Shown here in pieces: positions 347-26,101 of a DNA stretch of 64,000 bases. Under the pieces are notes generated by a model. That model saw nothing but the letters and a program-made list of their open reading frames with translations. It did no database searches and was not told where the DNA came from. Source of the stretch: Escherichia coli (GTDB lineage Bacteria > Pseudomonadota > Gammaproteobacteria > Enterobacterales > Enterobacteriaceae); NCBI RefSeq assembly GCF_051903065.1, contig NZ_CP178438.1; one strand, given 5' to 3'. The translations under genes were made by a program, and so were the position numbers. The stretch's first letter is position 1. The number at the start of each line of letters is the position of its first letter.

Positions 347-3300
347 TTATATCTGCCCGCCTACACCTTTAAACTTCTCAATAAACGCGACGATCTTCTG
401 GAAAACCGTCTGTTTTTTCGTCTTATATTGCGGATTTAACGGACTGAGTTTTGGCAATGTCTCGTTTAATTCCGTGCCATTTTCGGTTGCGTATTCGCGT
501 TTTAAAGACGTGCGAATATAGCGTTTCGCCGCCTCTTCATTGAGATTTTCTTCTTTGATCAATGCTGCTGCTTCACGTTGCTGTTCGCGTTGAGCAAAGG
601 TAAAAAACGCGTCAATGATGCTGGCTTTATCCGGCAAATCATCCAGGTTCGTTTGCTGAATAAAATCGACCACCAATCCTTCTTTGGCACGGTTCCCAAG
701 GCTTGAACGAATTAAGCGTTTGACCTCTTCGGTCATTTCGCCCTTACCTTTGTTTTGTCTGTTGTGTTCGAAAATCAGTCCAAGGATATAATCCAGGTTT
801 ATTTCCTGAGACTTCAGCAAATCGACCTCAAAAACCACGTCATCCCAGTCGGTGGTTGATTTTTCTTTTTTGTCAGCTTCTTTCTCACGGCGCTGCCAGT
901 CACGAATATCGTTATAGGCTGAACGGTAATCCTGAATCTTGCGATCAGCAGGGAGACGAATCGTTTGTAATTCAGCGAACTTTTCATCATCCACATAATG
1001 TTCTGCTTTGAATTTTTCTACCGCAACAGGATCGCTAAGATCGATTTGTTGCAGGGCTTTCAGCATGGCAAATTCATCATAGTTTTGCAGGATGTTCTCG
1101 GCACGCAGGTATTCACCAAACAGTTTTACGAAGTCTTTCTTCTCTTTTTCACTTTCAATATTGGCAGGGTCAGGGAACCGTTGTTCCAGTTCTGAAACTA
1201 CTGCCATAAAGCCGCGTTTAGCTTCACCAGTGGCAGCATCAGTAAAGCCTTCCATATACTCTGCATAACTCTTTTCTAACACCACATTTTTGGTATTTTT
1301 ATCACCAAACAGCGTTATGGCATCAATGGTTGAGCGTTCCAGATCCCGGAAAGTGACGATGTTACCGAAGGTTTTAGTGGCGTTATAAATGCGGTTGGTG
1401 CGGGAAAATGCCTGCATCAGGCCGTGAAAACGCAAGTTTTTATCGACGAATAGCGTGTTCAATGTTGGAGCATCGAAGCCGGTTAAAAACATCCCCACGA
1501 CAATTAACAGATCGATATCTTGATTTTTAACCCGTTGGGCTAAATCACGATAGTAGTTCTGAAAACCGTTACTGTCGGTGCTGAAGTTAGTTTTAAAATA
1601 GCTGTTATACTCACGAATTGCAGCGTCAAGAAACTCTTTAGCACTGCTGTCCATTGCGCTGGTATCAAAAGTTTCATCGGAAATTTCACCAATGGCATTT
1701 TGCTCTTCATTGGCGGCAAAGGAGAAGATTGTCGCAACACGCAGCGGTTTATAAGTAGCCGATTTATTAGCTGCTTCCTCTTGTAACCGTTTAAACGTAG
1801 CGTAATAGGCTTTCGCGGCATCCACGCTACTCACTGCCAGCATGGCATTAAAGCCTTTGGAACTTGGGAAAGTACGGTGGGTCTTCTGGCGGAAGTTATT
1901 CAGAATATATTGCGTAATTTCCTGTATACGCATGGGATGAAGAAACGCCTGCTGATTTTCAGCCGCACTCAGTTTTTTCTCGTCGGTTTCTGTCTCTAAA
2001 GACTTAAACTGTGGCCGCACATCGTTGTAGTCCACCTTGAATTTGAGCACTTTTTCATCACGAATCGCATCGGTAATCACATATGAATGCAATTCACGAC
2101 CAAATACGCTGGCGGTCGTTTCTGAGCCTAAAGCGTTTTCCGGGAAAATAGGGGTACCGGTAAAACCAAACTGATAATAGCGTTTGAATTTCTTCTTCAG
2201 ATTTTTCTGCGCTTCTCCAAACTGGCTGCGGTGACATTCATCAAATATAAACACCACTTGCTGATTGTATACAGGCAGGTCGCTTTCTGCTTTCATCAGG
2301 TTATTAAGTTTCTGAATAGTGGTGACGATAATTTTGTTATCGTCCTTATCCAGATTTCGTTTAAGACCTGCTGTATTTTCCGAGCCGTTAACACTATCTG
2401 GCGAAAAACGCTGATATTCCTTCATGGTCTGGTAATCGAGGTCTTTCCTGTCGACCACAAAGAAGACTTTATCAATAAAGTCCAGTTCTGTTGCCAGACG
2501 TGCGGCTTTAAAGCTGGTCAGGGTTTTACCAGAACCGGTTGTGTGCCAGATAAAGCCACCGCTTTCGGGGGTAGACCAGTTTTTCGCTTTATAGGAGCTG
2601 TTGATTTTCCATAAGATACGCTCAGTGGCGGCAATCTGGTACGGTCGCATCACTAGTAGCGTTTGGCTAATATCGAACACGCTGTAGTTCACTAAGACAT
2701 TAAGCAGAGTATGTTTCTGGAAAAAGGTAGCGGTAAAGTCTTTGAGGTCTTTAATCAGCGTGTTGTCTGATTTCGCCCAATTCATGGTGAAATCAAAACT
2801 GTTTTTATCGCGCTTTGTGGTGTTGGCAAAATAACGGGTATCGGTGCCGTTAGAAATGACAAACAGTTGCAGATACTTAAACAGGGAATTTTCGCTGTTA
2901 AAACTCTCTTTACTGTAACGATGTATTTGGTTGAAAGCCTCACGAATCGCCACGCCGCGCTTTTTCAGTTCGATTTGTACCAGTGGTAAGCCATTAACCA
3001 GGATCGTGACGTCATAACGGTTAGCATGAGAACCCGCCTGTTCAAACTGCTGGATAATCTGCACCTTATTGCGCATGAGATTCTTTTTATCTATCAGATA
3101 GATATTTTCAAGACGCCCGTCATCAAAAATAAAGTCGCAGATATAGTCGATATGAATTTTACGGGTTTTATCCAGGATGCCATCGCTGGGGTTGTCCAGA
3201 TACTGCTCCGTGAAACGCCGCCACTCGCTGTCATTAAACACCACACCATTGAGGTTCTGAAGCTGTTCCCGAACATTGGACAGCATCGCCGACTGTGATT

Positions 3301-3463
3301 TTACCGAAATAAATTCATAGCCCTGATTCCGCAGGTCCTGAATCAGTTCCCGTTCCAGGTCCGATTCGCTCTGGTAGCTGTCGCCTGTTTGCTCAGCTTT
3401 GATGTACTTATCAAGGACGATAAAGTTATTGGATTCAGCAATGGTGTGTGTTTGATGAGTCAT
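347..3463 (-). CDS. hsdR: Type I restriction enzyme R subunit (HsdR), type IC / EcoR124I-like, 1038 aa
   Basis: ORF-track protein starts [14 protein letters not shown] and has the same length (1038 aa) as EcoR124I HsdR as I recall it; DEAD-box helicase motifs (TGSGKT, DECH) present. Confidence 0.9.
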
Positions 3464-3584: not shown

Positions 3585-4865
3585 TTAGTTACTGATAGTT
3601 TCAGGTTTGGGAAAACTGAACAGTAAATCACGATAGTACTCGTATTGTTTCTGGCGCAACTCGATTTCACGCGGGAGGCCTTCGGTGATGGAGTTTGTCA
3701 GAGTGTCGAATTTATCGAGTATTGCGACGATACGAGCTTGTTCCTTAAGTGATTTTTCGTGATCTTTAGGATATGGAACCGGAATCATAATTTTTGAAAA
3801 ACCATTAATGAGTAGTGTATTAACTTTTGTTCTGGCTACATACTTTGCTTTTTCAGAAATAAACGAATCGGTTTGCATGTAATAGGAAATAAATTTTGGA
3901 TTCAAAGAATGTCGAAAAGCATAACAGTGATCATGAATAGCGATATCGTCATCCCCAAGCCATGCCACTGCTTTACCAACGTCTTCTACAGTCTCCCCCA
4001 CGTCAGTTATCACGACATCTCCATGTTTGGCATAGCGTAATGACGCTGCCATATCAGCTCTAACCTGTGATAACGAATGAGTTGTGTAAACACCATATCG
4101 TGTATATATCTCACCATAATGGATTACACTGATACCACCATCTTCTACATAATCTGCTTTAGTAAAACGTTTTCCACGAATAAACTCACCAATTTCCCCC
4201 AAAGTCTTCCACTCAACCTCACCCTCTTTAAAACTCAACAACTGGTCGCGATAGTAGTTGTACTGTTTTTTACGCATGGTAAGCTCTGCTGTAAGCTCTG
4301 CTGTAAGCTCAGTAAATTTATCCAGAATCCGAACGATTTCAGACTGGATGGCAAGGGATTTTTCCGGATTGCCCGGGCAGGGGATGGGGATGAGTAGTTT
4401 TGACATCAATGCATTTGAGCTTAGATTCGGCTGTGCTCCGCCCCCTGCAAGGATATAAATAGTCTCTGTATTTAACAATAAAAAATGGTATAAATAATTA
4501 TTGTTTAGAATATTTTCTTTGGGTATAAATTTCCCAACACGTTGGTTAAGATAACATTTTATTCCTTTTTTATAAATTCCCACTTTTCCTGTAGTGGCAC
4601 CTGACATTGCAATCAATATATTTCCCATAGATACCTCAAAGGAGGATAAATCTTCCTTGTAATCATTTAGTGAAAAGTATTTCACCTCATCTAAGTCAAC
4701 ATTAAACCCATCTATATTTGTGATTCTAACTATCGGTAACCCAGTTTCTTTAAATAAGCTGCTTTTAAATGCAAATCCATTTTTAAAATCACAAACATCC
4801 TTCAGGGTTTTCCACTCAACCTCAACCCCATCCAGCAATTTTTCCAGATAACTCAACTCGCTCAT
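3585..4865 (-). CDS. hsdS: Type I R-M specificity subunit (HsdS), type IC, 426 aa, with central TAEL repeat
   Basis: Conserved type IC central and C-terminal regions ([49 protein letters not shown]); start ATG overlaps the hsdM stop (ATGA), indicating translational coupling. Confidence 0.9.
4279..4311 (-). repeat. 12-bp tandem repeat in hsdS encoding (TAEL)2 plus a partial copy; spacer-length determinant of type IC HsdS
   Basis: Plus strand GTAAGCTCTGCT x2 then GTAAGCTCA; the minus strand reads ACT GAG CTT ACA GCA GAG CTT ACA GCA GAG CTT, i.e. [11 protein letters not shown]. Confidence 0.85.
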
Positions 4866-6416
4866 TTCTGCACCCCGCAGCCTTCAATTTCAGCCACAAT
4901 CGCATCAATATCTTTGCGCAACTGGTCGATTTTGCTGACCGTGGTTTTCAGCTCAGCATTCAGCTCACCGATATCGATAATTTCGCGAGTATCTTTCGCT
5001 TCAACATAGCTGCTCACCGACAGGTTATAGTCATTCGCTACAACGGCTTCAAACGCGACAGATTTCGCCAGATGAGCAACATCTTCCTTGCTGGCAAATA
5101 CCTGCATAATCTGTTCGATATGGGCATCGGTCAGGATATTGTTGTTGGTCTCTTTTTTGAACAGTTCGCTGGCGTCAATAAACTGAACTTTGGTATCGGT
5201 TTTATGTTTAGACAGCACCAGAATATTGACGGCAATAGTGGTGCCAAAGAACAGGTTCGGTGCCAGTGAAATCACGGTTTCGACATAGTTATTATCGACC
5301 AGATACTGACGGATTTTCTGCTCCGCGCCGCCACGGTAAAAAATACCCGGGAAGCAAACAATCGCAGCGCGACCTTTGGCCGAAAGATAGTTCAGCGCAT
5401 GTAGTACAAAGGCGAAGTCAGCTTTGGATTTGGGGGCCAGGACGCCAGCCGGGGCAAAACGTTCATCGTTAATCAGCGTCGGGTCATCGCTGCCAATCCA
5501 TTTCACCGAATACGGCGGGTTAGAAACGATGGCATCAAACGGTTTTTCATCTCTGAAGTGCGGCTCAGTCAGTGTATTGCCCAACTTGATATCAAACTTG
5601 TCGTAGTTGATGTTGTGCAAAAACATGTTCATACGCGCCAGGTTATAGGTCGTATGGTTGATCTCCTGACCAAAAAAGCCTTCTTCGATGATATGGTCAT
5701 CAAACTGCTTTTTCGCCTGCAACAACAGCGAACCGGAACCTGCGGCCGGGTCGTAGATTTTGTTAACGTGGGTCTGCCCGTGCATAGCCAGTTGTGCAAT
5801 CAGCTTAGAGACGTGCTGCGGTGTAAAGAACTCGCCGCCTGACTTACCAGCATTCGCGGCATAGTTAGAAATCAGGAACTCATAGGCATCGCCGAACAGG
5901 TCAATCTGATGTTCGTTAAAGTCGCCAAGCTTTAACCCTTCAACCCCTTTCAGAACCGCAGCCAGGCGGGCATTTTTATCCTTAACGGTGTTACCCAGGC
6001 GGTTACTGGTGGTATCGAAATCAGCAAACAAACCTTTGATGTCAGCTTCTGAAGGGTAACCGTAAGCAGAACTTTCGATAGCAACGAAGATGCTGTTTAA
6101 ATCTGCATTCAGTCTGTCATTGGTATTTGCTTTCGCAGCTACGTTGCAGAAAAGCTGACTTGGGTAGATGAAGTAGCCTTTGGTTTTGATGGCATCGTCT
6201 TTAATGTCATCAGTTATTACGCTGTCATCCAGTTTCGCATAACAGATACTGTCATCACCGGCTTCAATATAGCTGGAAAAATTTTCGCTGATAAAACGGT
6301 AGAAAAGCGCGCCCAGAACGTATTGCTTAAAGTCCCATCCATCGACCGAACCTCTGACATCGTTAGCAATTTGCCAGATCTGGCGATGAAGCTCCGCGCT
6401 GCTGAAGACTGGTCAT
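4862..6416 (-). pseudogene. hsdM: Type IC R-M methyltransferase subunit (HsdM) with an N-terminal frameshift (apparent 2-bp deletion in a CGCGCG run at about codon 8)
   Basis: ATG at 6416 with an AAGGA ribosome-binding site reads [17 protein letters not shown] then stop. The frame encoding the conserved body ([16 protein letters not shown]...) has an in-frame TGA at 6413-6415 and no ATG/GTG/TTG start until the TTG at 6031, which is why the ORF track shows only 389 aa. Confidence 0.7.
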
Positions 6417-7914: not shown

Positions 7915-9969
7915 ATGGTTCAGGATTCATCAGCATTAGCCCCCTTCTTTCGTGCTCAAATTGAAAAAAATAATCAATACAATTCAGTTTGGGGCAAACA
8001 CTACCGCCAGCTTGTAGAACAGATTCAGGCCGAAAAACCAAACTTTTCTGAAGCCACGATTCGGCAGGTATGGTATGAACGTGACAATGGTGTCTCCAGC
8101 CTGATGCAAGGAGGGATGTCATTGGTTGAATTTGAAAATGCACAAAAAGACCTTCTAACGCTCACCCGTCAGATAGCAGAAGAGTGTACACAAGAAAATT
8201 ATAATCGGGTCATTGAACGCCTTATCAAACTTAAAGCGGACGGAGTATTAAATAAGGTATATAGGGCTCTTTGTAATCGTGCTTTTGCAGCAATATACCC
8301 ATCAAAAATTAGCAGTGTCGTGAATGTTAATAATTTTTTTAGTTGCTACAATTATTGCAACAACCATTTCCAGCTAGGTCTTTCCGGAGAACGGGAGTGG
8401 CTGGCTCGCAATGTTGATCTTAAAGAAACGCTAAATCGTGCGCTGGGTGATGATATCGACCCTATTGAGCTGAATATGTCACTTTGGCATCTCTATGCGT
8501 ATGAAATTCAGGATAAAAATGCTATCGGTTTAGTTGGAAGCGAAAGTGCTTTACAAGAAAATGAGCAAGAAGATGATGTTATAAGTTCGCCATTGCCTAA
8601 AAACACAATTCTCTATGGCCCGCCAGGTACAGGTAAAACATATCGTACTATTGAGCTTGCTGTACAAATTTGTGATCCGATCGCTTACTCCCTGCAGGAG
8701 GGTAAGGATGAGAGTGAAAAACGTCGCGAGTTGAAAAAGATTTATGATCAGCTTATCAAAGAAAATCGAGTGCGTTTTATCACCTTTCATCAGAGCTTTG
8801 GTTATGAAGAGTTTATTGAAGGTTTAAGAGCTGAGACTACTGATGACGGTAATGTAAAATACGAAATAAAGGCAGGTATTTTTAAGCAGATATGCGAGGA
8901 TGCCGCCTTTGGTCATGCTGGTGCGCAGGAAATGTTAGATAGCGCACTTACTCGCCTACAAGAACGTTTATCTGAAGGTGAAAATATCACGCTGGAAACA
9001 CAACAGGGTAAGGCCTTCCAGCTGACGTATAAAAGTCAAACCAACTTTGGAATTTTCCCGTCACAATCGAAAAAAGAGGATTTAGGACAGGGTTACAATG
9101 CCTATTTGAAGGATATTCGGCAAGTTTATCAGGATCCACGAGCAAAAGTACATAATCCATCTTATGTACGCAGTATCCTTAACTATTTAATTAATCAACG
9201 TTATCTGCCTCTGAATACTCAGAGCGTAGCTTCAGAAAAAAAGGAAAACTATGTTCTCATTATTGATGAAATAAATCGGGGTAATATTTCAAAAATTTTC
9301 GGTGAACTAATTACCCTTATTGAGCCATCTAAACGGGCTGGTGAGCCAGAATCGCTTAGCGTATTGCTGCCATACTCTTCCACTCCATTTAGTGTGCCGA
9401 ATAACCTTTATTTAATTGGTACCATGAACACTGCTGATCATTCGCTTACTGCACTTGATACTGCACTACGTCGCAGATTTGATTTTGAAGCGATGCTGCC
9501 AGATATTACTGTTCTGAAAGATACTGTCATTAAAGGTATTGATCTGCCTCGTCTATTGCAGACGCTTAACGATCGCATCCAGGTTTTATACGATAGAGAA
9601 CATATGCTGGGGCATGCTTTTTTTATCCCTGTTGTGCAGGCAAAAGAAGACGAAGCTCTGGCATTTGAAAGATTCAAACGGATTATGCGAAATAAGATAC
9701 TACCATTGCTGGAAGAATATTTTTACAATGACTGGCAAAAAATTCGCATGGTACTGGCTGATAACCAAAAAGAGGAAGCACCAGATCTTCAATTTGTACG
9801 TGAGGTGAAATACCAGAAAAAGTATGCCGATCTCTTTGGTGATAACGGAACAGATGACTTGGGAACCAGTTTTCACCTGGCAGCAGAGGATGACAACGTT
9901 TGGGACAATCCAATCGCCTGGCAGCAAATTTATGCACCTCAAAAAGAAAAACGCAGGAGTGCGGAATGA
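7915..9969 (+). CDS. McrB-family AAA+ GTPase (type IV restriction-like), 684 aa, with a non-canonical N-terminal domain of about 230 aa
   Basis: Motifs ILYGPPGTGKTY, FHQSFGYEEFIEG, IIDEINRGNISKIFGEL and GTMNTADHSLTALDTALRRRF parallel the EcoKI McrB GTPase motifs; residues 1-230 do not resemble the EcoKI McrB N-terminal 5mC reader as I recall it. Confidence 0.8.
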   Translation: MVQDSSALAPFFRAQIEKNNQYNSVWGKHYRQLVEQIQAEKPNFSEATIRQVWYERDNGVSSLMQGGMSLVEFENAQKDLLTLTRQIAEECTQENYNRVIERLIKLKADGVLNKVYRALCNRAFAAIYPSKISSVVNVNNFFSCYNYCNNHFQLGLSGEREWLARNVDLKETLNRALGDDIDPIELNMSLWHLYAYEIQDKNAIGLVGSESALQENEQEDDVISSPLPKNTILYGPPGTGKTYRTIELAVQICDPIAYSLQEGKDESEKRRELKKIYDQLIKENRVRFITFHQSFGYEEFIEGLRAETTDDGNVKYEIKAGIFKQICEDAAFGHAGAQEMLDSALTRLQERLSEGENITLETQQGKAFQLTYKSQTNFGIFPSQSKKEDLGQGYNAYLKDIRQVYQDPRAKVHNPSYVRSILNYLINQRYLPLNTQSVASEKKENYVLIIDEINRGNISKIFGELITLIEPSKRAGEPESLSVLLPYSSTPFSVPNNLYLIGTMNTADHSLTALDTALRRRFDFEAMLPDITVLKDTVIKGIDLPRLLQTLNDRIQVLYDREHMLGHAFFIPVVQAKEDEALAFERFKRIMRNKILPLLEEYFYNDWQKIRMVLADNQKEEAPDLQFVREVKYQKKYADLFGDNGTDDLGTSFHLAAEDDNVWDNPIAWQQIYAPQKEKRRSAE

Positions 9970-11338: not shown

Positions 11339-12211
11339 TCACCCCCTAAAAACCTCTTTCCGATGCCACTCCACAAACCCCTCAAAAGGGTAATTTTTAC
11401 GCACCTGTGGCAACGCAATAGTTTTCCCGTCAAAATCCCAGAATAATCTCTCAACGATCCCTCCGCCGTTTACCGCATCCGAGACCAGTATCCGCATATT
11501 TTCATCCAGGCCAATCGATCCTTTATCAAAGGCTTTATGGTGTATTGCGCAAAGTGCCAGACCATTGGGGATTTCACAAGGGCCGCCGTGCTGTTTCCAT
11601 TTTATATGCGCCGCTTCCAGCGCGACGGTGGTGTCGTCGTGGCGCATATTAAAGCCACATATCGCGCACTGGTATTTATAAGCGCGTAATACATTTTTGC
11701 GAAATAACGGGTCGCGCTGTTTACGGATTTGCTGGAGATCAAAACCCAGCTCGTCAGCAATTTCTTCCTGAATACTCTCGGTGAAGTGCGCTTCGAGTAT
11801 CTGTTGCGCCAGAGTATTGATGAGTTTTTTATTGCCGGTTACCAGGGCGTAGTGCTGTTCATCGAAACCGCCTGCAACGTGGTATTCGTTCAGTTCCTTC
11901 ACTGGCGGTTGTCGGCTGCTCCCTGCTGTTGAGCAACGCTCGGCATTGTGTAATTGCCAGAATCCGTCGCCTTGTAATCGCCAGAACGGCATATCAGGTC
12001 GGTACTGTGAACGCTGTGGCCCAAAACGTTCCAGTAAACTGTGCAGAGGTTCGTAGATTTCCGAGCCATAATCGAAAAGGCGCGGATGTCCATGCAGGTA
12101 TCCCGCTAATACGTATAGCAATAACAATGGCTTATGCGGCGCGCGCTGTTCACCCTTATGCCAGATTTTTATATTGGCAATTGCCTGCTGTAGCGATTTA
12201 CTGGAAGCCAT
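11339..12211 (-). CDS. HNH-family nuclease (C-terminal CAICG...HIKW...CAIHH motif) with an uncharacterised N-terminal domain; candidate modification-dependent restriction enzyme
   Basis: Cys/His HNH motifs in the C-terminal third; start chosen at ATG 12211 (AGGGA ribosome-binding site, protein begins MASSKSL); the ORF track extends to a TTG at 12268. Confidence 0.65.
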   Translation of the reverse strand: MASSKSLQQAIANIKIWHKGEQRAPHKPLLLLYVLAGYLHGHPRLFDYGSEIYEPLHSLLERFGPQRSQYRPDMPFWRLQGDGFWQLHNAERCSTAGSSRQPPVKELNEYHVAGGFDEQHYALVTGNKKLINTLAQQILEAHFTESIQEEIADELGFDLQQIRKQRDPLFRKNVLRAYKYQCAICGFNMRHDDTTVALEAAHIKWKQHGGPCEIPNGLALCAIHHKAFDKGSIGLDENMRILVSDAVNGGGIVERLFWDFDGKTIALPQVRKNYPFEGFVEWHRKEVFRG

Positions 12212-12347
12212 TGATATCCCTGGCAGTGAAATAATTGCGATCATGCTCGCAAATTTTCTGCTGTTCAAGCCTGCAAGTGAAGATATATTACTTTGATCTC
12301 ATTTGTTTTTTTGCTGCTTGTTCTGAGAACGTATAAGGACATTCTCT

Positions 12348-12998
12348 ATGAATAAACTCCCCGATCATCTTCCGCGGCGGTATATTATCGAAGCTATTCA
12401 TTTATGGGATGCGGGAGAAACTCATCAGTTCCAGCCTGCACGGTTGTATGAGATTGAATATCATGGCCGACGTTACCCCTCGAAGGCGATTGCTGGCATC
12501 GCAGCGACATTGATGACGGGGACGCAATTTACCCCTGCGGATTTCACCGGCGGAATAAAATCTAAATGCGTCAAGCTACTTATAGATCAGGGATTTCATA
12601 TTCATCAGGATAAAGCCGCTGCGGCTCCCATAGCCGATGTTCTGTTCCCGGATGAGTTGCCGTCGCAGGGGACCTACGTTGAAGGTGCGGCGATAAAGGT
12701 GACGGTAAACAGCTATGAACGCGATAAAAACGCTCGCGAGAAAGCAGTCGAATATCACGGATGCCAGTGCAACGTATGCGGCGTTGATCTGGTGAAGATC
12801 TATGGCGATATCGCTGAGGGCTTTATCCATATGCATCACCTGGTGCCGCTTTCAGCCATTAAAGAGGATTACCTGCTGGATCCAGTTAATGATTTACTTC
12901 CTGTGTGCCCTAATTGCCATGCGATGTTGCACCGACGCAAACCACCGTTTACGCCGGAGGAGTTAAAAGCGTTGATGGATGCGAATAAATCAAATTAA
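12348..12998 (+). CDS. HNH nuclease, 216 aa (C-terminal CQCNVCG...HMHHLVP...CPNCH, McrA-like HNH) with a distinct N-terminal domain
   Basis: HNH zinc-finger-type motif resembling the E. coli McrA C-terminus as recalled; transcribed divergently from the neighbouring HNH gene. Confidence 0.7.
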   Translation: MNKLPDHLPRRYIIEAIHLWDAGETHQFQPARLYEIEYHGRRYPSKAIAGIAATLMTGTQFTPADFTGGIKSKCVKLLIDQGFHIHQDKAAAAPIADVLFPDELPSQGTYVEGAAIKVTVNSYERDKNAREKAVEYHGCQCNVCGVDLVKIYGDIAEGFIHMHHLVPLSAIKEDYLLDPVNDLLPVCPNCHAMLHRRKPPFTPEELKALMDANKSN

Positions 12999-13005
12999 TG
13001 AACGC

Positions 13006-17348: not shown

Positions 17349-17951
17349 ATGAAGAATAAGGCTGATAACAAAAAAAGGAACTTCCTGACCCATAGTGAAA
17401 TCGAATCACTCCTTAAAGCAGCAAATACCGGGCCTCATGCAGCACGTAATTATTGTCTGACTTTGCTTTGTTTTATTCATGGTTTCCGGGCGAGTGAAAT
17501 TTGTCGATTGAGGATTTCGGATATTGATCTTAAGGCAAAGTGTATATATATCCATCGATTAAAAAAAGGCTTTTCAACAACGCACCCGCTATTGAACAAA
17601 GAAGTTCAGGCTTTAAAAAACTGGTTAAGTATCCGTACTTCGTACCCGCATGCTGAGAGCGAATGGGTATTTTTATCGCGTAAGGGGAATCCGCTTTCTC
17701 GGCAACAGTTTTACCATATTATCTCGACTTCCGGTGGTAATGCCGGGTTGTCACTGGAGATTCATCCGCACATGTTACGCCATTCGTGTGGTTTTGCTTT
17801 GGCGAATATGGGAATAGATACGCGGCTTATCCAGGATTATCTTGGGCATCGCAATATTCGTCATACTGTCTGGTATACCGCCAGCAATGCAGGGCGTTTT
17901 TACGGCATCTGGGATAGGGCCAGAGGACGACAGCGTCACGCTGTTTTATAG
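17349..17951 (+). CDS. fimB: Type 1 fimbriae recombinase FimB (tyrosine recombinase), 200 aa
   Basis: MKNKADNKKRNFLTHSEIESLL... matches K-12 FimB; the C-terminal RHxxxxY tyrosine-recombinase region is present. Confidence 0.95.
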   Translation: MKNKADNKKRNFLTHSEIESLLKAANTGPHAARNYCLTLLCFIHGFRASEICRLRISDIDLKAKCIYIHRLKKGFSTTHPLLNKEVQALKNWLSIRTSYPHAESEWVFLSRKGNPLSRQQFYHIISTSGGNAGLSLEIHPHMLRHSCGFALANMGIDTRLIQDYLGHRNIRHTVWYTASNAGRFYGIWDRARGRQRHAVL

Positions 17952-18428: not shown

Positions 18429-19025
18429 GTGAGTAAACGTCGTTATCTTACCGGTAAAGAAGTTCAGGCCATGATGCAGGCGGTTTGTTACGGGGCAACG
18501 GGAGCCAGAGATTATTGTCTTATTCTGTTGGCATATCGGCATGGGATGCGTATTAGTGAACTGCTTGATCTGCATTATCAGGATCTTGACCTTAATGAAG
18601 GTCGAATAAATATTCGCCGACTGAAGAACGGATTTTCTACCGTTCACCCGTTACGTTTTGATGAGCGTGAAGCTGTGGAACGCTGGACCCTGGAACGTGC
18701 TAACTGGAAAGGCGCTGATCGGACCGACGCCATATTTATTTCTCGCCGCGGGAGTCGGCTTTCTCGCCAGCAGGCCTATCGCATTATTCGTGATGCCGGT
18801 ATTGAAGCTGGAACCGTAACGCAGACTCATCCTCATATGTTAAGGCATGCTTGCGGTTATGAACTGGCGGAGCGTGGTGCCGATACCCGTTTAATTCAGG
18901 ATTATCTCGGGCATCGAAATATTCGCCATACTGTGCGTTATACCGCCAGTAATGCTGCTCGTTTTGCCGGATTATGGGAAAGAAATAATCTCATAAACGA
19001 AAAATTAAAAAGAGAAGAGGTTTGA
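18429..19025 (+). CDS. fimE: Type 1 fimbriae recombinase FimE, 198 aa (GTG start)
   Basis: MSKRRYLTGKEVQAMMQAV... matches K-12 FimE. Confidence 0.95.
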   Translation: MSKRRYLTGKEVQAMMQAVCYGATGARDYCLILLAYRHGMRISELLDLHYQDLDLNEGRINIRRLKNGFSTVHPLRFDEREAVERWTLERANWKGADRTDAIFISRRGSRLSRQQAYRIIRDAGIEAGTVTQTHPHMLRHACGYELAERGADTRLIQDYLGHRNIRHTVRYTASNAARFAGLWERNNLINEKLKREEV

Positions 19026-19072
19026 TTTAACTTATTGATAATAAAGTTAAAAAACAAATAAATACAAGACAA

Positions 19073-19386
19073 TTGGGGCCAAACTGTCCATATCATAAAT
19101 AAGTTACGTATTTTTTCTCAAGCATAAAAATATTAAAAAACGACAAAAAGCACCTAACTGTTTGATATGTAAATTATTTCTCTTGTAAATTAATTTCACA
19201 TCACCTCCGCTATATGTAAAGCTAACGTTTCTGTGGCTCGACGCATCTTCCTCATTCTTCTCTCCAAAAACCACCTCATGCAATATAAAAATCTATAAAT
19301 AAAGATAACAATAGAATATTAAGCCAACAAATAAACTGAAAAAGTTTGTGCGCGATGCTTTCCTCTATGAGTCAAAATGGCCCCAA
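19073..19386. promoter_or_regulatory. fimS: fimS invertible switch (314 bp) bounded by 9-bp inverted repeats TTGGGGCCA; here apparently in the OFF orientation
   Basis: Left repeat at 19073-19081 and right repeat at 19378-19386 are exactly 314 bp apart. The promoter-like TTGAGA-18 bp-TATGATA lies on the minus strand next to the fimE-proximal repeat, pointing away from fimA. Confidence 0.75.
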
Positions 19387-19505
19387 ATGTTTCATCTTTT
19401 GGGGGAAAACTGTGCAGTGTTGGCAGTCAAACTCGTTGACAAAACAAAGTGTACAGAACGACTGCCCATGTCGATTTAGAAATAGTTTTTTTAAAGGAAA
19501 GCAGC

Positions 19506-20054
19506 ATGAAAATTAAAACTCTGGCAATCGTTGTTCTGTCGGCTCTGTCCCTCAGTTCCGCAGCGGCTCTGGCCGATACTACGACGGTAAATGGTGGGAC
19601 CGTTCACTTTAAAGGGGAAGTTGTTAATGCCGCTTGCGCAGTTGATGCAGGCTCTGTTGATCAAACCGTTCAGTTAGGACAGGTTCGTACCGCATCGCTG
19701 GCACAAGAAGGAGCAACCAGTTCTGCTGTCGGTTTTAACATTCAACTGAACGATTGTGACACTACTGTTGCAGACAAAGCAGCTATTGCCTTCCTTGGTA
19801 CCGCAATTGATGGCACTCATCCTAACGTATTAGCTTTGCAGAGTTCAGCTGCGGGTAGCGCAACAAAAGTTGGTGTGCAGATCCTGGACAGAACGGGCGC
19901 TGCGCTGGCGCTGGACGGTGCGACATTTAGTGCACAAACAACCCTGAATAACGGAACCAACACCATTCCGTTCCAGGCGCGTTATTTTGCAACCGGTGCC
20001 GCAACCCCTGGCGCAGCTAATGCGGATGCGACCTTCAAGGTTCAGTATCAATAA
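19506..20054 (+). CDS. fimA: Major type 1 fimbrial subunit FimA, 182 aa
   Basis: Signal peptide [24 protein letters not shown]-terminal ...FKVQYQ. Confidence 0.95.
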
Positions 20055-20118
20055 CCTACCCAGGTTCAGGGACGTCATTACGGGCAGGGATGCCCACCCT
20101 TGTGCGATAAAAATAACG

Positions 20119-20658
20119 ATGAAAAGGAAGAGATTATTTCTATTAGCGTCGTTGCTGCCAATGTTTGCTCTGGCCGGAAATAAATGGAATACCACGCTGC
20201 CCGGCGGAAATATGCAATTTCAGGGCGTCATTATTGCGGAAACTTGCCGGATTGAAGCCGGTGATAAACAAATGACGGTCAATATGGGGCAAATCAGCAG
20301 TAACCGGTTTCATGCGGTTGGGGAAGATAGCGCACCGGTGCCTTTTGTTATTCATTTACGGGAATGTAGCACGGTGGTGAGTGAACGTGTAGGTGTGGCG
20401 TTTCACGGTGTCGCGGATGGTAAAAATCCGGATGTGCTTTCCGTGGGAGAGGGGCCAGGGATAGCCACCAATATTGGCGTAGCGTTGTTTGATGATGAAG
20501 GAAACCTCGTACCGATTAATCGTCCTCCAGCAAACTGGAAACGGCTTTACTCAGGCTCTACTTCGCTACATTTCATCGCCAAATATCGTGCTACCGGGCG
20601 TCGGGTTACTGGCGGCATCGCCAATGCCCAGGCCTGGTTCTCTTTAACCTATCAGTAA
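20119..20658 (+). CDS. fimI: Fimbrial protein FimI
   Basis: [19 protein letters not shown] signal peptide, pilin-like C-terminus ...SLTYQ. Confidence 0.9.
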
Positions 20659-20694
20659 TTGTTCAGCAGATAATGTGATAACAGGAACAGGACA

Positions 20695-21420
20695 GTGAGT
20701 AATAAAAACGTCAATGTAAGGAAATCGCAGGAAATAACATTCTGCTTGCTGGCAGGTATCCTGATGTTCATGGCAATGATGGTTGCCGGACGCGCTGAAG
20801 CGGGAGTGGCCTTAGGTGCGACTCGCGTAATTTATCCGGCAGGGCAAAAACAAGTGCAACTTGCCGTGACAAATAATGATGAAAATAGCACCTATTTAAT
20901 TCAATCATGGGTGGAAAATGCCGATGGTGTAAAGGATGGTCGTTTTATCGTGACGCCTCCTCTGTTTGCGATGAAGGGAAAAAAAGAGAATACCTTGCGT
21001 ATTCTTGATGCAACAAATAACCAATTGCCACAGGACCGGGAAAGTTTATTCTGGATGAACGTTAAAGCGATTCCGTCAATGGATAAATCAAAATTGACTG
21101 AGAATATGCTACAGCTCGCAATTATCAGCCGCATTAAACTGTACTATCGTCCGGCTAAATTAGCGTTGCCACCCGATCAGGCCGCAGAAAAATTAAGATT
21201 TCGTCGTAGCGCGAATTCTCTGACGCTGATTAACCCGACACCCTATTACCTGACGGTAACAGAGTTGAATGCCGGAGCCCGGGTTCTTGAAAATGCCTTG
21301 GTGCCTCCAATGGGCGAAAGCACGGTTAAATTGCCTTCTGATGCAGGAAGCAATATTACTTACCGAACAATAAATGATTATGGCGCACTTACCCCCAAAA
21401 TGACGGGCGTAATGGAATAA
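20695..21420 (+). CDS. fimC: Periplasmic pilus chaperone FimC, 241 aa (GTG start)
   Basis: Matches K-12 FimC N-terminus MSNKNVNVRKSQEITFCLLAGIL. Confidence 0.95.
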   Translation: MSNKNVNVRKSQEITFCLLAGILMFMAMMVAGRAEAGVALGATRVIYPAGQKQVQLAVTNNDENSTYLIQSWVENADGVKDGRFIVTPPLFAMKGKKENTLRILDATNNQLPQDRESLFWMNVKAIPSMDKSKLTENMLQLAIISRIKLYYRPAKLALPPDQAAEKLRFRRSANSLTLINPTPYYLTVTELNAGARVLENALVPPMGESTVKLPSDAGSNITYRTINDYGALTPKMTGVME

Positions 21421-21486
21421 CGCAGGGGGAATTTTTCGCCTGAATAAAAAGAATTGACTGCCGGGTGATTTTAAACCGGAGGAATA

Positions 21487-24123
21487 ATGTCATATCTGAA
21501 TTTAAGACTTTACCAGCGAAACACACAATGCTTGCATATTCGTAAGCATCGTTTGGCTGGTTTTTTTGTCCGGCTCTTTGTCGCCTGTGCTTTTGCCGCA
21601 CAGGCACCTTTGTCATCTGCCGAACTCTATTTTAATCCGCGCTTTTTAGCGGATGATCCCCAGGCTGTGGCCGATTTATCGCGTTTTGAAAATGGGCAAG
21701 AATTACCGCCAGGGACGTATCGTGTCGATATCTATTTGAATAATGGTTATATGGCAACGCGTGATGTCACATTTAATACGGGCGACAGCGAACAAGGGAT
21801 TGTTCCCTGCCTGACACGCGCGCAACTTGCCAGTATGGGGCTGAATACGGCTTCTGTCTCCGGTATGAATCTGCTGGCGGATGATGCCTGCGTGCCATTA
21901 ACCTCCATGATCCATGACGCTACTGCGCATTTAGATGTTGGTCAGCAGCGACTCAACCTGACGATCCCTCAGGCATTTATGAGTAATCGCGCGCGTGGTT
22001 ATATTCCTCCTGAGTTATGGGATCCCGGTATTAATGCCGGATTGCTCAATTATAATTTCAGCGGAAATAGTGTACAGAATCGGATTGGGGGTAACAGCCA
22101 TTATGCATATTTAAACCTACAGAGTGGGTTAAATATTGGTGCGTGGCGTTTACGCGACAATACCAGCTGGAGTTATAACAGTAGCGACAGATCATCAGGT
22201 AGCAAAAATAAATGGCAGCATATCAATACCTGGCTTGAGCGAGACATAATACCGTTACGTTCCCGGCTGACGCTGGGTGATGGTTATACTCAGGGCGATA
22301 TTTTCGATGGTATTAACTTTCGCGGCGCACAATTGGCCTCAGATGACAATATGTTACCCGATAGCCAAAGAGGATTTGCCCCGGTGATCCACGGTATTGC
22401 TCGTGGTACTGCACAGGTCACTATTAAACAAAATGGGTATGACATTTATAATAGTACGGTGCCGCCGGGGCCTTTTACCATCAACGATATCTATGCCGCA
22501 GGTAATAGTGGTGACTTGCAGGTAACGATTAAAGAGGCTGACGGCAGCACGCAGATTTTTACCGTACCCTATTCGTCAGTCCCGCTTTTGCAACGTGAAG
22601 GGCATACTCGTTATTCCATTACGGCAGGAGAATACCGTAGTGGAAATGCGCAACAGGAAAAACCCCGCTTTTTCCAAAGTACATTACTCCACGGCCTTCC
22701 GGCTGGCTGGACAATATATGGTGGAACGCAACTGGCAGATCGTTATCGTGCTTTTAATTTCGGTATCGGGAAAAACATGGGGGCACTGGGCGCTCTGTCT
22801 GTGGATATGACGCAGGCTAATTCCACACTTCCCGATGACAGTCAGCATGACGGACAATCGGTGCGTTTTCTCTATAACAAATCGCTCAATGAGTCAGGCA
22901 CGAATATTCAGTTAGTGGGTTACCGTTATTCGACCAGCGGATATTTAAATTTCGCTGATACAACATACAGTCGAATGAATGGCTACAACATCGAAACACA
23001 GGATGGAGTTATTCAGGTTAAGCCGAAATTCACCGACTATTACAACCTCGCTTATAACAAACGCGGGAAATTACAGCTCACCGTTACTCAGCAACTCGGG
23101 CGCACATCAACACTGTATTTGAGTGGTAGCCATCAAACTTATTGGGGAACGAGTAATGTCGATGAGCAATTCCAGGCTGGTTTAAATACTGCGTTCGAAG
23201 ATATCAACTGGACGCTCAGCTATAGCCTGACGAAAAACGCCTGGCAAAAAGGACGGGATCAGATGTTAGCGCTTAACGTCAATATTCCTTTCAGCCACTG
23301 GCTGCGTTCTGACAGTAAATCTCAGTGGCGACATGCCAGTGCCAGCTACAGCATGTCACACGATCTCAACGGTCGGATGACCAATCTGGCTGGTGTATAC
23401 GGTACGTTGCTGGAAGACAACAACCTCAGTTATAGCGTGCAAACCGGCTATGCCGGGGGAGGCGATGGTAATAGCGGAAGTACAGGCTACGCCACGCTGA
23501 ATTATCGCGGTGGTTACGGCAATGCCAATATCGGTTACAGCCATAGCGATGATATTAAGCAGCTCTATTACGGAGTCAGCGGTGGGGTACTGGCTCATGC
23601 TAATGGCGTAACGCTGGGGCAGCCGTTAAACGATACGGTGGTGCTTGTTAAAGCGCCTGGCGCAAAAGATGCAAAAGTCGAAAACCAGACGGGGGTGCGT
23701 ACCGACTGGCGCGGTTATGCCGTGCTGCCTTATGCCACCGAATATCGGGAAAACAGAGTGGCGCTGGATACCAATACCCTGGCTGATAACGTCGATTTAG
23801 ATAACGCGGTCGCTAACGTTGTTCCCACTCGTGGGGCGATCGTGCGAGCAGAGTTTAAAGCGCGCGTTGGGATAAAACTGCTCATGACGCTAACCCACAA
23901 TAATAAGCCGCTGCCGTTTGGGGCGATGGTGACATCAGAGAGTAGCCAGAGTAGCGGCATTGTTGCGGATAATGGTCAGGTTTACCTCAGCGGAATGCCT
24001 TTAGCGGGAAAAGTTCAGGTGAAATGGGGAGAAGAGGAAAATGCTCACTGTGTCGCCAATTATCAACTGCCACCAGAGAGTCAGCAGCAGTTATTAACCC
24101 AGCTATCAGCTGAATGTCGTTAA
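21487..24123 (+). CDS. fimD: Outer-membrane usher FimD, 878 aa
   Basis: Length and position between fimC and fimF; usher-type sequence. Confidence 0.95.
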   Translation: MSYLNLRLYQRNTQCLHIRKHRLAGFFVRLFVACAFAAQAPLSSAELYFNPRFLADDPQAVADLSRFENGQELPPGTYRVDIYLNNGYMATRDVTFNTGDSEQGIVPCLTRAQLASMGLNTASVSGMNLLADDACVPLTSMIHDATAHLDVGQQRLNLTIPQAFMSNRARGYIPPELWDPGINAGLLNYNFSGNSVQNRIGGNSHYAYLNLQSGLNIGAWRLRDNTSWSYNSSDRSSGSKNKWQHINTWLERDIIPLRSRLTLGDGYTQGDIFDGINFRGAQLASDDNMLPDSQRGFAPVIHGIARGTAQVTIKQNGYDIYNSTVPPGPFTINDIYAAGNSGDLQVTIKEADGSTQIFTVPYSSVPLLQREGHTRYSITAGEYRSGNAQQEKPRFFQSTLLHGLPAGWTIYGGTQLADRYRAFNFGIGKNMGALGALSVDMTQANSTLPDDSQHDGQSVRFLYNKSLNESGTNIQLVGYRYSTSGYLNFADTTYSRMNGYNIETQDGVIQVKPKFTDYYNLAYNKRGKLQLTVTQQLGRTSTLYLSGSHQTYWGTSNVDEQFQAGLNTAFEDINWTLSYSLTKNAWQKGRDQMLALNVNIPFSHWLRSDSKSQWRHASASYSMSHDLNGRMTNLAGVYGTLLEDNNLSYSVQTGYAGGGDGNSGSTGYATLNYRGGYGNANIGYSHSDDIKQLYYGVSGGVLAHANGVTLGQPLNDTVVLVKAPGAKDAKVENQTGVRTDWRGYAVLPYATEYRENRVALDTNTLADNVDLDNAVANVVPTRGAIVRAEFKARVGIKLLMTLTHNNKPLPFGAMVTSESSQSSGIVADNGQVYLSGMPLAGKVQVKWGEEENAHCVANYQLPPESQQQLLTQLSAECR

Positions 24124-24132
24124 GGGGGCGTG

Positions 24133-24663
24133 ATGAGAAACAAACCTTTTTATCTTCTGTGCGCTTTTTTGTGGCTGGCGGTGAGTCACGCTTTGGCTGC
24201 GGATAGCACGATTACTATCCGCGGCTATGTCAGAGATAACGGCTGTAGTGTGGCCGCTGAATCAACCAATTTTACTGTTGATTTGATGGAAAACGCGGCG
24301 AAGCAATTTAACAACATTGGCGCGACGACTCCTGTCGTTCCATTTCGTATTTTGCTGTCACCCTGTGGTAATGCCGTTTCTGCCGTAAAAGTTGGGTTTA
24401 CCGGTGTTGCAGATAGCCACAATGCCAACCTGCTTGCACTTGAAAATACGGTGTCAGCGGCTTCGGGACTGGGAATACAGCTTCTGAATGAGCAGCAAAA
24501 TCAGATACCCCTTAATGCTCCATCGTCCGCGCTTTCGTGGACGACCCTGACGCCGGGTAAACCAAATACGCTGAATTTTTACGCCCGGCTAATGGCGACA
24601 CAGGTGCCTGTCACTGCGGGGCATATCAATGCCACGGCTACCTTCACTCTTGAATATCAGTAA
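24133..24663 (+). CDS. fimF: Minor fimbrial subunit FimF
   Basis: [22 protein letters not shown] signal peptide; C-terminal ...TLEYQ. Confidence 0.9.
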
Positions 24664-24675
24664 CTGGAGATGCTC

Positions 24676-25179
24676 ATGAAATGGCGCAAACGTGGGTATT
24701 TATTGGCGGCAATATTGGCGCTCGCAAGTGCGACGATACAGGCAGCCGATGTCACCATCACGGTGAACGGTAAGGTCGTCGCCAAACCGTGCACAGTTTC
24801 CACCACCAATGCCACGGTTGATCTCGGCGATCTTTATTCTTTCAGTCTGATGTCTGCCGGGGCGGCATCGGCCTGGCATGATGTTGCGCTTGAGTTGACT
24901 AATTGTCCGGTGGGAACGTCGAGGGTCACTGCCAGCTTCAGCGGGGCAGCCGACAGTACCGGATATTATAAAAACCAGGGGACCGCGCAAAACATCCAGT
25001 TAGAGCTACAGGATGACAGTGGCAACACATTGAATACTGGCGCAACCAAAACAGTTCAGGTGGATGATTCCTCACAATCAGCGCACTTCCCGTTACAGGT
25101 CAGAGCATTGACGGTAAATGGCGGAGCCACTCAGGGAACCATTCAGGCAGTGATTAGCATCACCTATACCTACAGCTGA
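24676..25179 (+). CDS. fimG: Minor fimbrial subunit FimG
   Basis: MKWRKRGYLLAAILALASATIQA signal peptide; pilin fold. Confidence 0.9.
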   Translation: MKWRKRGYLLAAILALASATIQAADVTITVNGKVVAKPCTVSTTNATVDLGDLYSFSLMSAGAASAWHDVALELTNCPVGTSRVTASFSGAADSTGYYKNQGTAQNIQLELQDDSGNTLNTGATKTVQVDDSSQSAHFPLQVRALTVNGGATQGTIQAVISITYTYS

Positions 25180-25198
25180 ACCCGAAGAGATGATTGTA

Positions 25199-26101
25199 AT
25201 GAAACGAGTTATTACCCTGTTTGCTGTACTGCTGATGGGCTGGTCGGTAAATGCCTGGTCATTCGCCTGTAAAACCGCCAATGGTACCGCTATCCCTATT
25301 GGCGGTGGCAGCGCCAATGTTTATGTAAATCTTGCGCCCGCCGTGAATGTGGGGCAAAACCTGGTCGTAGATCTTTCGACGCAAATCTTTTGCCATAACG
25401 ATTATCCGGAAACCATTACAGACTATGTCACACTGCAACGAGGCTCGGCTTATGGCGGCGTGTTATCTAATTTTTCCGGGACCGTAAAATATAGTGGCAG
25501 TAGCTATCCATTTCCGACCACCAGCGAAACGCCGCGGGTTGTTTATAATTCGAGAACGGATAAGCCGTGGCCGGTGGCGCTTTATTTGACGCCTGTGAGC
25601 AGTGCGGGCGGGGTGGCGATTAAAGCTGGCTCATTAATTGCCGTGCTTATTTTGCGACAGACCAACAACTATAACAGCGATGATTTCCAGTTTGTGTGGA
25701 ATATTTACGCCAATAATGATGTGGTGGTGCCTACTGGCGGCTGCGATGTTTCTGCTCGTGATGTCACCGTTACTCTGCCGGACTACCCTGGTTCAGTGCC
25801 AATTCCTCTTACCGTTTATTGTGCGAAAAGCCAAAACCTGGGGTATTACCTCTCCGGCACAACCGCAGATGCGGGCAACTCGATTTTCACCAATACCGCG
25901 TCGTTTTCACCAGCGCAGGGCGTCGGCGTACAGTTGACGCGCAACGGTACGATTATTCCAGCGAATAACACGGTATCGTTAGGAGCAGTAGGGACTTCGG
26001 CGGTAAGTCTGGGATTAACGGCAAATTACGCACGTACCGGCGGGCAGGTGACTGCAGGGAATGTGCAATCGATTATTGGCGTGACTTTTGTTTATCAATA
26101 A
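25199..26101 (+). CDS. fimH: Mannose-binding adhesin FimH, 300 aa
   Basis: MKRVITLFAVLLMGWSVNAWS then mature FACKTANGTAIPIGGG...; carries Ala27, Asn70 and Ser78 in mature numbering, which I recall as the K-12-like allele. Confidence 0.95.
   Translation: MKRVITLFAVLLMGWSVNAWSFACKTANGTAIPIGGGSANVYVNLAPAVNVGQNLVVDLSTQIFCHNDYPETITDYVTLQRGSAYGGVLSNFSGTVKYSGSSYPFPTTSETPRVVYNSRTDKPWPVALYLTPVSSAGGVAIKAGSLIAVLILRQTNNYNSDDFQFVWNIYANNDVVVPTGGCDVSARDVTVTLPDYPGSVPIPLTVYCAKSQNLGYYLSGTTADAGNSIFTNTASFSPAQGVGVQLTRNGTIIPANNTVSLGAVGTSAVSLGLTANYARTGGQVTAGNVQSIIGVTFVYQ

Follow-up and report, generated by a model that had tools for sequence, protein, structure and literature searches.

The fim locus and its invertible element

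The 64,000-nucleotide stretch of Escherichia coli DNA analysed here (contig NZ_CP178438.1; hereafter the window) carries fimB, fimE and the fimAICDFGH operon, with the fimS element lying inside the 480-nt gap between fimE and fimA (Table 1). The element is intact and bounded by a 9-bp repeat on either side, IRL next to fimE and IRR next to fimA; TGGCCCCAA (IRR) is the exact reverse complement of TTGGGGCCA (IRL), and the pair spans exactly 314 bp. Both the repeat length and the distance are those by which fimS is defined (PMC2647292, PMC9993118). Taken by itself, a perfect 9-bp inverted pair at 314-bp spacing is a weak statistic: the window has one, and five mononucleotide shuffles averaged 0.2. 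The identification was decided instead by the match to the MG1655 element, where 310 of 314 positions agree. Across complete E. coli genomes, a fimS match was found in 4716 of 5426.

Table 1 Features of the fim locus, with positions counted from the first nucleotide of the window.
Feature	Position	Strand	Remarks
fimB, tyrosine recombinase	17349-17951	+	200/200 aa identical to K-12 FimB; no internal stop
fimE, tyrosine recombinase	18429-19025	+	197/198 aa identical to K-12 FimE; GTG start; no internal stop
IHF site I, consensus match just outside IRL	19028-19040	-	Exact match to WATCAANNNNTTR
fimS invertible element, phase OFF	19073-19386		Collinear with MG1655 (310/314) and UTI89 (304/314)
IRL, fimE-proximal (left) 9-bp inverted repeat TTGGGGCCA	19073-19081	+	Single occurrence in the 64-kb window
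PfimA promoter-like site	19092-19121	-	Consensus scan; -35 TTGAGA (19121-19116), 18-nt spacer, -10 TATGAT (19097-19092)
IHF site II, consensus match inside fimS	19155-19167	-	Exact match to WATCAANNNNTTR
Tentative Fis-like 15-mer GAATATTAAGCCAAC	19314-19328	+	Loose pattern match; exact bases inferred
BstUI site (CGCG)	19351-19354		Unique; used in published orientation assay; 24 nt from IRR as recorded
HinfI site (GAGTC)	19369-19373		Used in published orientation assay; gives 411+239 bp
IRR, fimA-proximal (right) 9-bp inverted repeat TGGCCCCAA	19378-19386	+	Single occurrence in the 64-kb window
fimAICDFGH structural operon	19506-26101	+	Seven genes full length relative to K-12; promoter disconnected as recorded
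fimA, 182 codons	19506-20054	+	169/182 aa identical to K-12

All nine fim genes (fimB, fimE and fimA-H) are full length relative to K-12 and free of internal stops. The preliminary description of this DNA had claimed an intact 314-bp invertible element flanked by intact fimB, fimE and structural genes, and on both counts it holds: the repeats are perfect, the length is exact, the sequence is that of the MG1655 element, and no gene is shortened or interrupted. The fimB product is annotated in relatives as the type 1 fimbria switch DNA invertase FimB. Among the structural genes downstream of fimA, identity to K-12 at the amino acid level is 179/179 for fimI, 238/241 for fimC, 869/878 for fimD, 176/176 for fimF, 165/167 for fimG and 299/300 for fimH.

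The fimA gene is by far the most diverged of the set relative to K-12, while fimB, fimI and fimF are 100% identical. This divergence is consistent with positive selection on fimA, which is mentioned in PMC6458436. Just downstream of fimA, the 35-nt small RNA FimR2 annotated in MG1655 is conserved base for base (20065-20099). The window's fimG (24676-25179) is a full 167-codon open reading frame; the RefSeq fimG of close relatives and of UTI89 is 60 nt shorter (444 nt), which looks like a start-codon choice of the annotation pipeline rather than a lesion. In relatives the leuX tRNA lies just upstream of the fim region, at a position outside the window, and no tRNA genes were found in the 64 kb. 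A reference cited in PMC11316696 gives leuX as a known FimB modulator.

Promoter-like sites and orientation of fimS

A consensus scan of positions 18900-19600 returned three sigma-70-like sites, close to the chance mean of 2.4. The best of them, TTGAGA-18-TATGAT, matches the sigma-70 consensus at 10 of 12 positions; it lies 10 nt inside the fimE-proximal repeat and is directed at fimE, away from fimA. Minus-strand promoter elements adjoining this repeat and pointing toward fimE had been noted in the preliminary description, and the scan recovers them, the TATGATA given there being the TATGAT hexamer plus one base. We take the two hexamers to be those of the mapped fimA promoter (Olsen & Klemm 1994). 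A full-text search of the accessible literature found no paper in which the -35 and -10 hexamers of PfimA are printed. The hexamers were identified by the consensus scan, and the orientation call was made independent of them.

Two restriction assays, published by two laboratories, were run in silico. Primers OL20 and OL4, both exact matches in the window, delimit a 727-bp product that BstUI cuts into 539+188 bp as recorded and 293+434 bp when the 314 bp are flipped. The published patterns are 539+187 for OFF and 433+293 for ON (PMC9993118); the fragment total is 1 bp off the published one, which leaves the orientation call unaffected. With primers CMD1258 and CMD1259 the in-silico product is 650 bp, and its HinfI fragments (411+239 as recorded, 128+522 flipped) exactly equal the OFF and ON patterns published for a 650-bp product (PMC6727828). 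Orientation assays are also described in PMC5763102 and PMC4488945, the main texts of which hold no usable primer sequences or fragment sizes.

Comparison with reference genomes led to the same call. The UTI89 reference genome is stated to carry fimS in the OFF orientation (PMC6458436), and the window element differs from it at 10 positions when aligned in the same orientation, against 215 as reverse complement. A 135-bp OFF-specific probe is contiguous in the window (19271-19405). Alignment to reference orientations had been named in the preliminary description as the result that could overturn its OFF assignment, and a restriction assay had been suggested as a check. The alignment favoured OFF, by collinearity with both UTI89 and MG1655, and the HinfI digest gave the published OFF pattern; the OFF configuration is thus confirmed by the promoter scan, the two digests, the collinearity and the contiguous probe together.

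The converse reading, in which the promoter has been wrongly assigned and the recorded orientation is actually phase ON, could draw on a weaker plus-strand match, TTGATA-18-TAAATT (19162-19191, 9/12). We give it next to no probability, as both restriction assays, the match to the OFF reference of UTI89 and the unbroken OFF probe all say OFF, and none of these depends on the promoter. In the window, fimS is in phase OFF, with the promoter directed away from fimA, and the segment is almost certainly the canonical phase-variation switch of E. coli, captured in that state.

Further sites fit the published layout of the element. The predicted IHF sites I and II, both consensus matches, coincide with the placement of IHF-1 and IHF-2 in PMC9993118, where IHF-1 adjoins IRL. 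The IHF pattern occurs five times in the window against 4.4 expected and is by itself not above chance; site I is assigned because of its position and its conservation with K-12. The tentative Fis-like GAATATTAAGCCAAC is 49 nt away from IRR, at the end of the element far from the promoter; PMC9993118 puts the fim promoter and the BstUI/Fis site at opposite ends of fimS.

Recorded orientation and the state of the sequenced culture

The frequency of the two orientations was estimated in 5426 complete E. coli genomes with a 130-nt query across the left junction, at a coverage of at least 80%. Of these, 4463 carry the junction as recorded and 248 carry it flipped; with a longer query of 434 nt, 4450 genomes were collinear. 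About 95% of the complete genomes with the locus are thus recorded OFF, the ON state accounting for 248 of about 4711. E. coli assemblies, those of MG1655 and UTI89 among them, show fimS OFF by default. OFF is also the usual state of E. coli with intact fimE grown on agar or in shaken broth. The segment occurs in nature in both orientations, as these counts, an exact inversion in E. coli M8 and an ON-oriented sister isolate attest.

That sister isolate, 23CRST031, and 23CRST027 are the closest genomes; both are human faecal isolates from Ecuador, 99.8-100% identical to the window over 22 kb. In 23CRST031 (NZ_AP045800.1, 12204-12536) fimS is 333 bp long and ON-oriented, with insertions of 1-3 nt scattered through the middle of the element. 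In 23CRST027 (NZ_AP045789.1, about 12204-12548) it is 345 bp long, with OFF ends and a middle that mixes both orientations and has likewise acquired scattered 1-3-nt insertions. The spacers between fimE and fimA are lengthened to 499 nt and 511 nt, respectively. These 333- and 345-bp elements are probably consensus artefacts of mixed ON and OFF reads. Should this be so, the lineage is one that switches readily, with OFF dominant in the culture or assembly behind the window.

The sister isolates also bear on how far the recorded orientation can be read as a property of the population. The assembler may have picked it out of a substantially mixed ON/OFF culture, in which case it would say little of fimbriation: the two near-identical genomes are ON-oriented or hybrid, as a mixed-read consensus would produce, mixed populations thus occur in the lineage, and a consensus sequence could hide a large ON minority. 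Against this, the fimS of the window is cleanly 314 bp long and aligns to that of K-12 without gaps, as expected if one orientation dominates; FimE is intact, and it biases strongly toward OFF where both recombinases are present (PMC9993118); and some 95% of complete genomes are OFF. We attach a small but real probability to the mixed culture. Because the consensus is clean, fimE is intact and the bias of FimE is known, we reasonably infer from the sequence that the culture was mostly non-fimbriate. The switch itself is probably active in this strain.

The sister isolates differ from the window at other loci. They carry two copies of IS903B (793-1760 and 5060-6028) that are absent from the window (7915-9969 and about 12300-13000); one copy splits mcrB and the other adjoins an HNH endonuclease gene. 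In the window, mcrB (7915-9969) is a single 684-codon open reading frame. The type I restriction-modification methylase gene hsdM (4862-6416, minus strand) is shifted in frame by 1 nt after about eight codons, with MTSLQQRG in one frame and the remainder to the end in another. The identical hsdM sequence is found in 23CRST027 and is annotated there by PGAP as frameshifted. The neighbouring hsdR (347-3463) and hsdS (3585-4865) appear as uninterrupted open reading frames.

Predicted switching and comparison with known fimS elements

The 314-bp segment would hold the sole promoter of fimAICDFGH, near one end. FimB and FimE, encoded immediately upstream, would cut and rejoin the DNA within the 9-bp repeats and thereby flip the segment, with IHF and Lrp acting as architectural cofactors of the inversion. 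FimB inverts fimS both ways, whereas FimE acts strongly from ON to OFF and is dominant when both are present (PMC9993118, PMC2647292); inversion requires IHF, and its direction is biased by Lrp, H-NS and Fis (PMC9993118, PMC2647292). As recorded, the promoter beside the fimE-proximal repeat would fire toward fimE, leaving the fimbrial genes untranscribed. [quoted passage not shown] No intrinsic-terminator-like hairpin was found in 18900-19600, which fits a Rho-dependent rather than an intrinsic terminator without being evidence for one.

The biology of fimS at this locus is textbook material; the OFF state is ordinary and nothing about it is novel. Its significance beyond correct annotation is slight. 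The orientation of fimS in an assembly is read as the majority state of the sequenced culture, and inferences on expression drawn from this assembly alone should flag the OFF promoter. Annotation should describe the fim operon, which is complete, as switchable rather than defective. More generally, invertible switches can corrupt a long-read consensus, as both sister assemblies appear to show.

The element of MG1655 (NC_000913.3, about 4542682-4542995) has the same repeats, length, flanking genes and orientation as that of the window. The four differences inside fimS are (window/MG1655) C/T at 19153, C/A at 19182, A/C at 19290 and G/C at 19350. Outside it, the A-run between fimE and IRL (19049-19054) is A6 in the window and A7 in MG1655, and the T-run that precedes the ribosome-binding site of fimA (19486-19492) is T7 in the window and both sister isolates; AR_452 and M8 have T6, and MG1655 has T6G. 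The best collinear match is AR_452, at 313 of 314 positions; the sole difference is again at 19153, C in the window and T in AR_452.

The C at 19153 lies two bases from the core of IHF site II, and MG1655, UTI89, AR_452 and M8 all have T there. A private mutation or sequencing error is ruled out at this position, the exact 58-mer around the C being shared by 65 of the 5426 complete genomes, among which O145:H28 strains are numerous. A lineage allele combining this rare base with the A at 19290 and the G at 19350, in the Lrp/Fis end, might shift the bias of switching toward ON. Such an effect would explain the ON and chimeric sister assemblies despite an intact FimE; we consider it very unlikely.

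In the uropathogenic strain UTI89 the element is collinear and likewise 314 bp long; its promoter motif lies on the fimE-facing strand, and ten substitutions separate it from that of the window. Other parts of the UTI89 genome encode accessory recombinases, FimX among them (PMC6458436). The opposite state is illustrated by E. coli M8 (NZ_CP019953.1), in which the same 314 bp are exactly inverted, with one substitution and identical flanks, so that TTGAGA-18-TATGAT faces fimA (phase ON).

The remaining comparison is with enterohaemorrhagic O157:H7, where the fimS deletion is 16 bp. The switch of O157:H7 is OFF like that of the window, but it is locked there, by a regulatory mutation in the switch according to work cited in PMC6458436. 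A genetic lock of this kind in the window, whether through an O157:H7-like deletion or through inactivated recombinases, is extremely improbable as an alternative to a reversible OFF state. Nothing specific speaks for it, the nearest candidate being the rare C at 19153 beside the IHF site II core, and a sister isolate with that same allele was assembled ON. The recombinases are identical or nearly so to those of K-12 (200/200 for fimB, 197/198 for fimE), and both IHF consensus sites are intact. A deletion in fimS is ruled out by the 314-bp length and the perfect repeats. A locked-OFF state in this strain is thus unlikely: unlike the O157:H7 element, the switch in the window has kept its full length, and its repeats and recombinases are intact.
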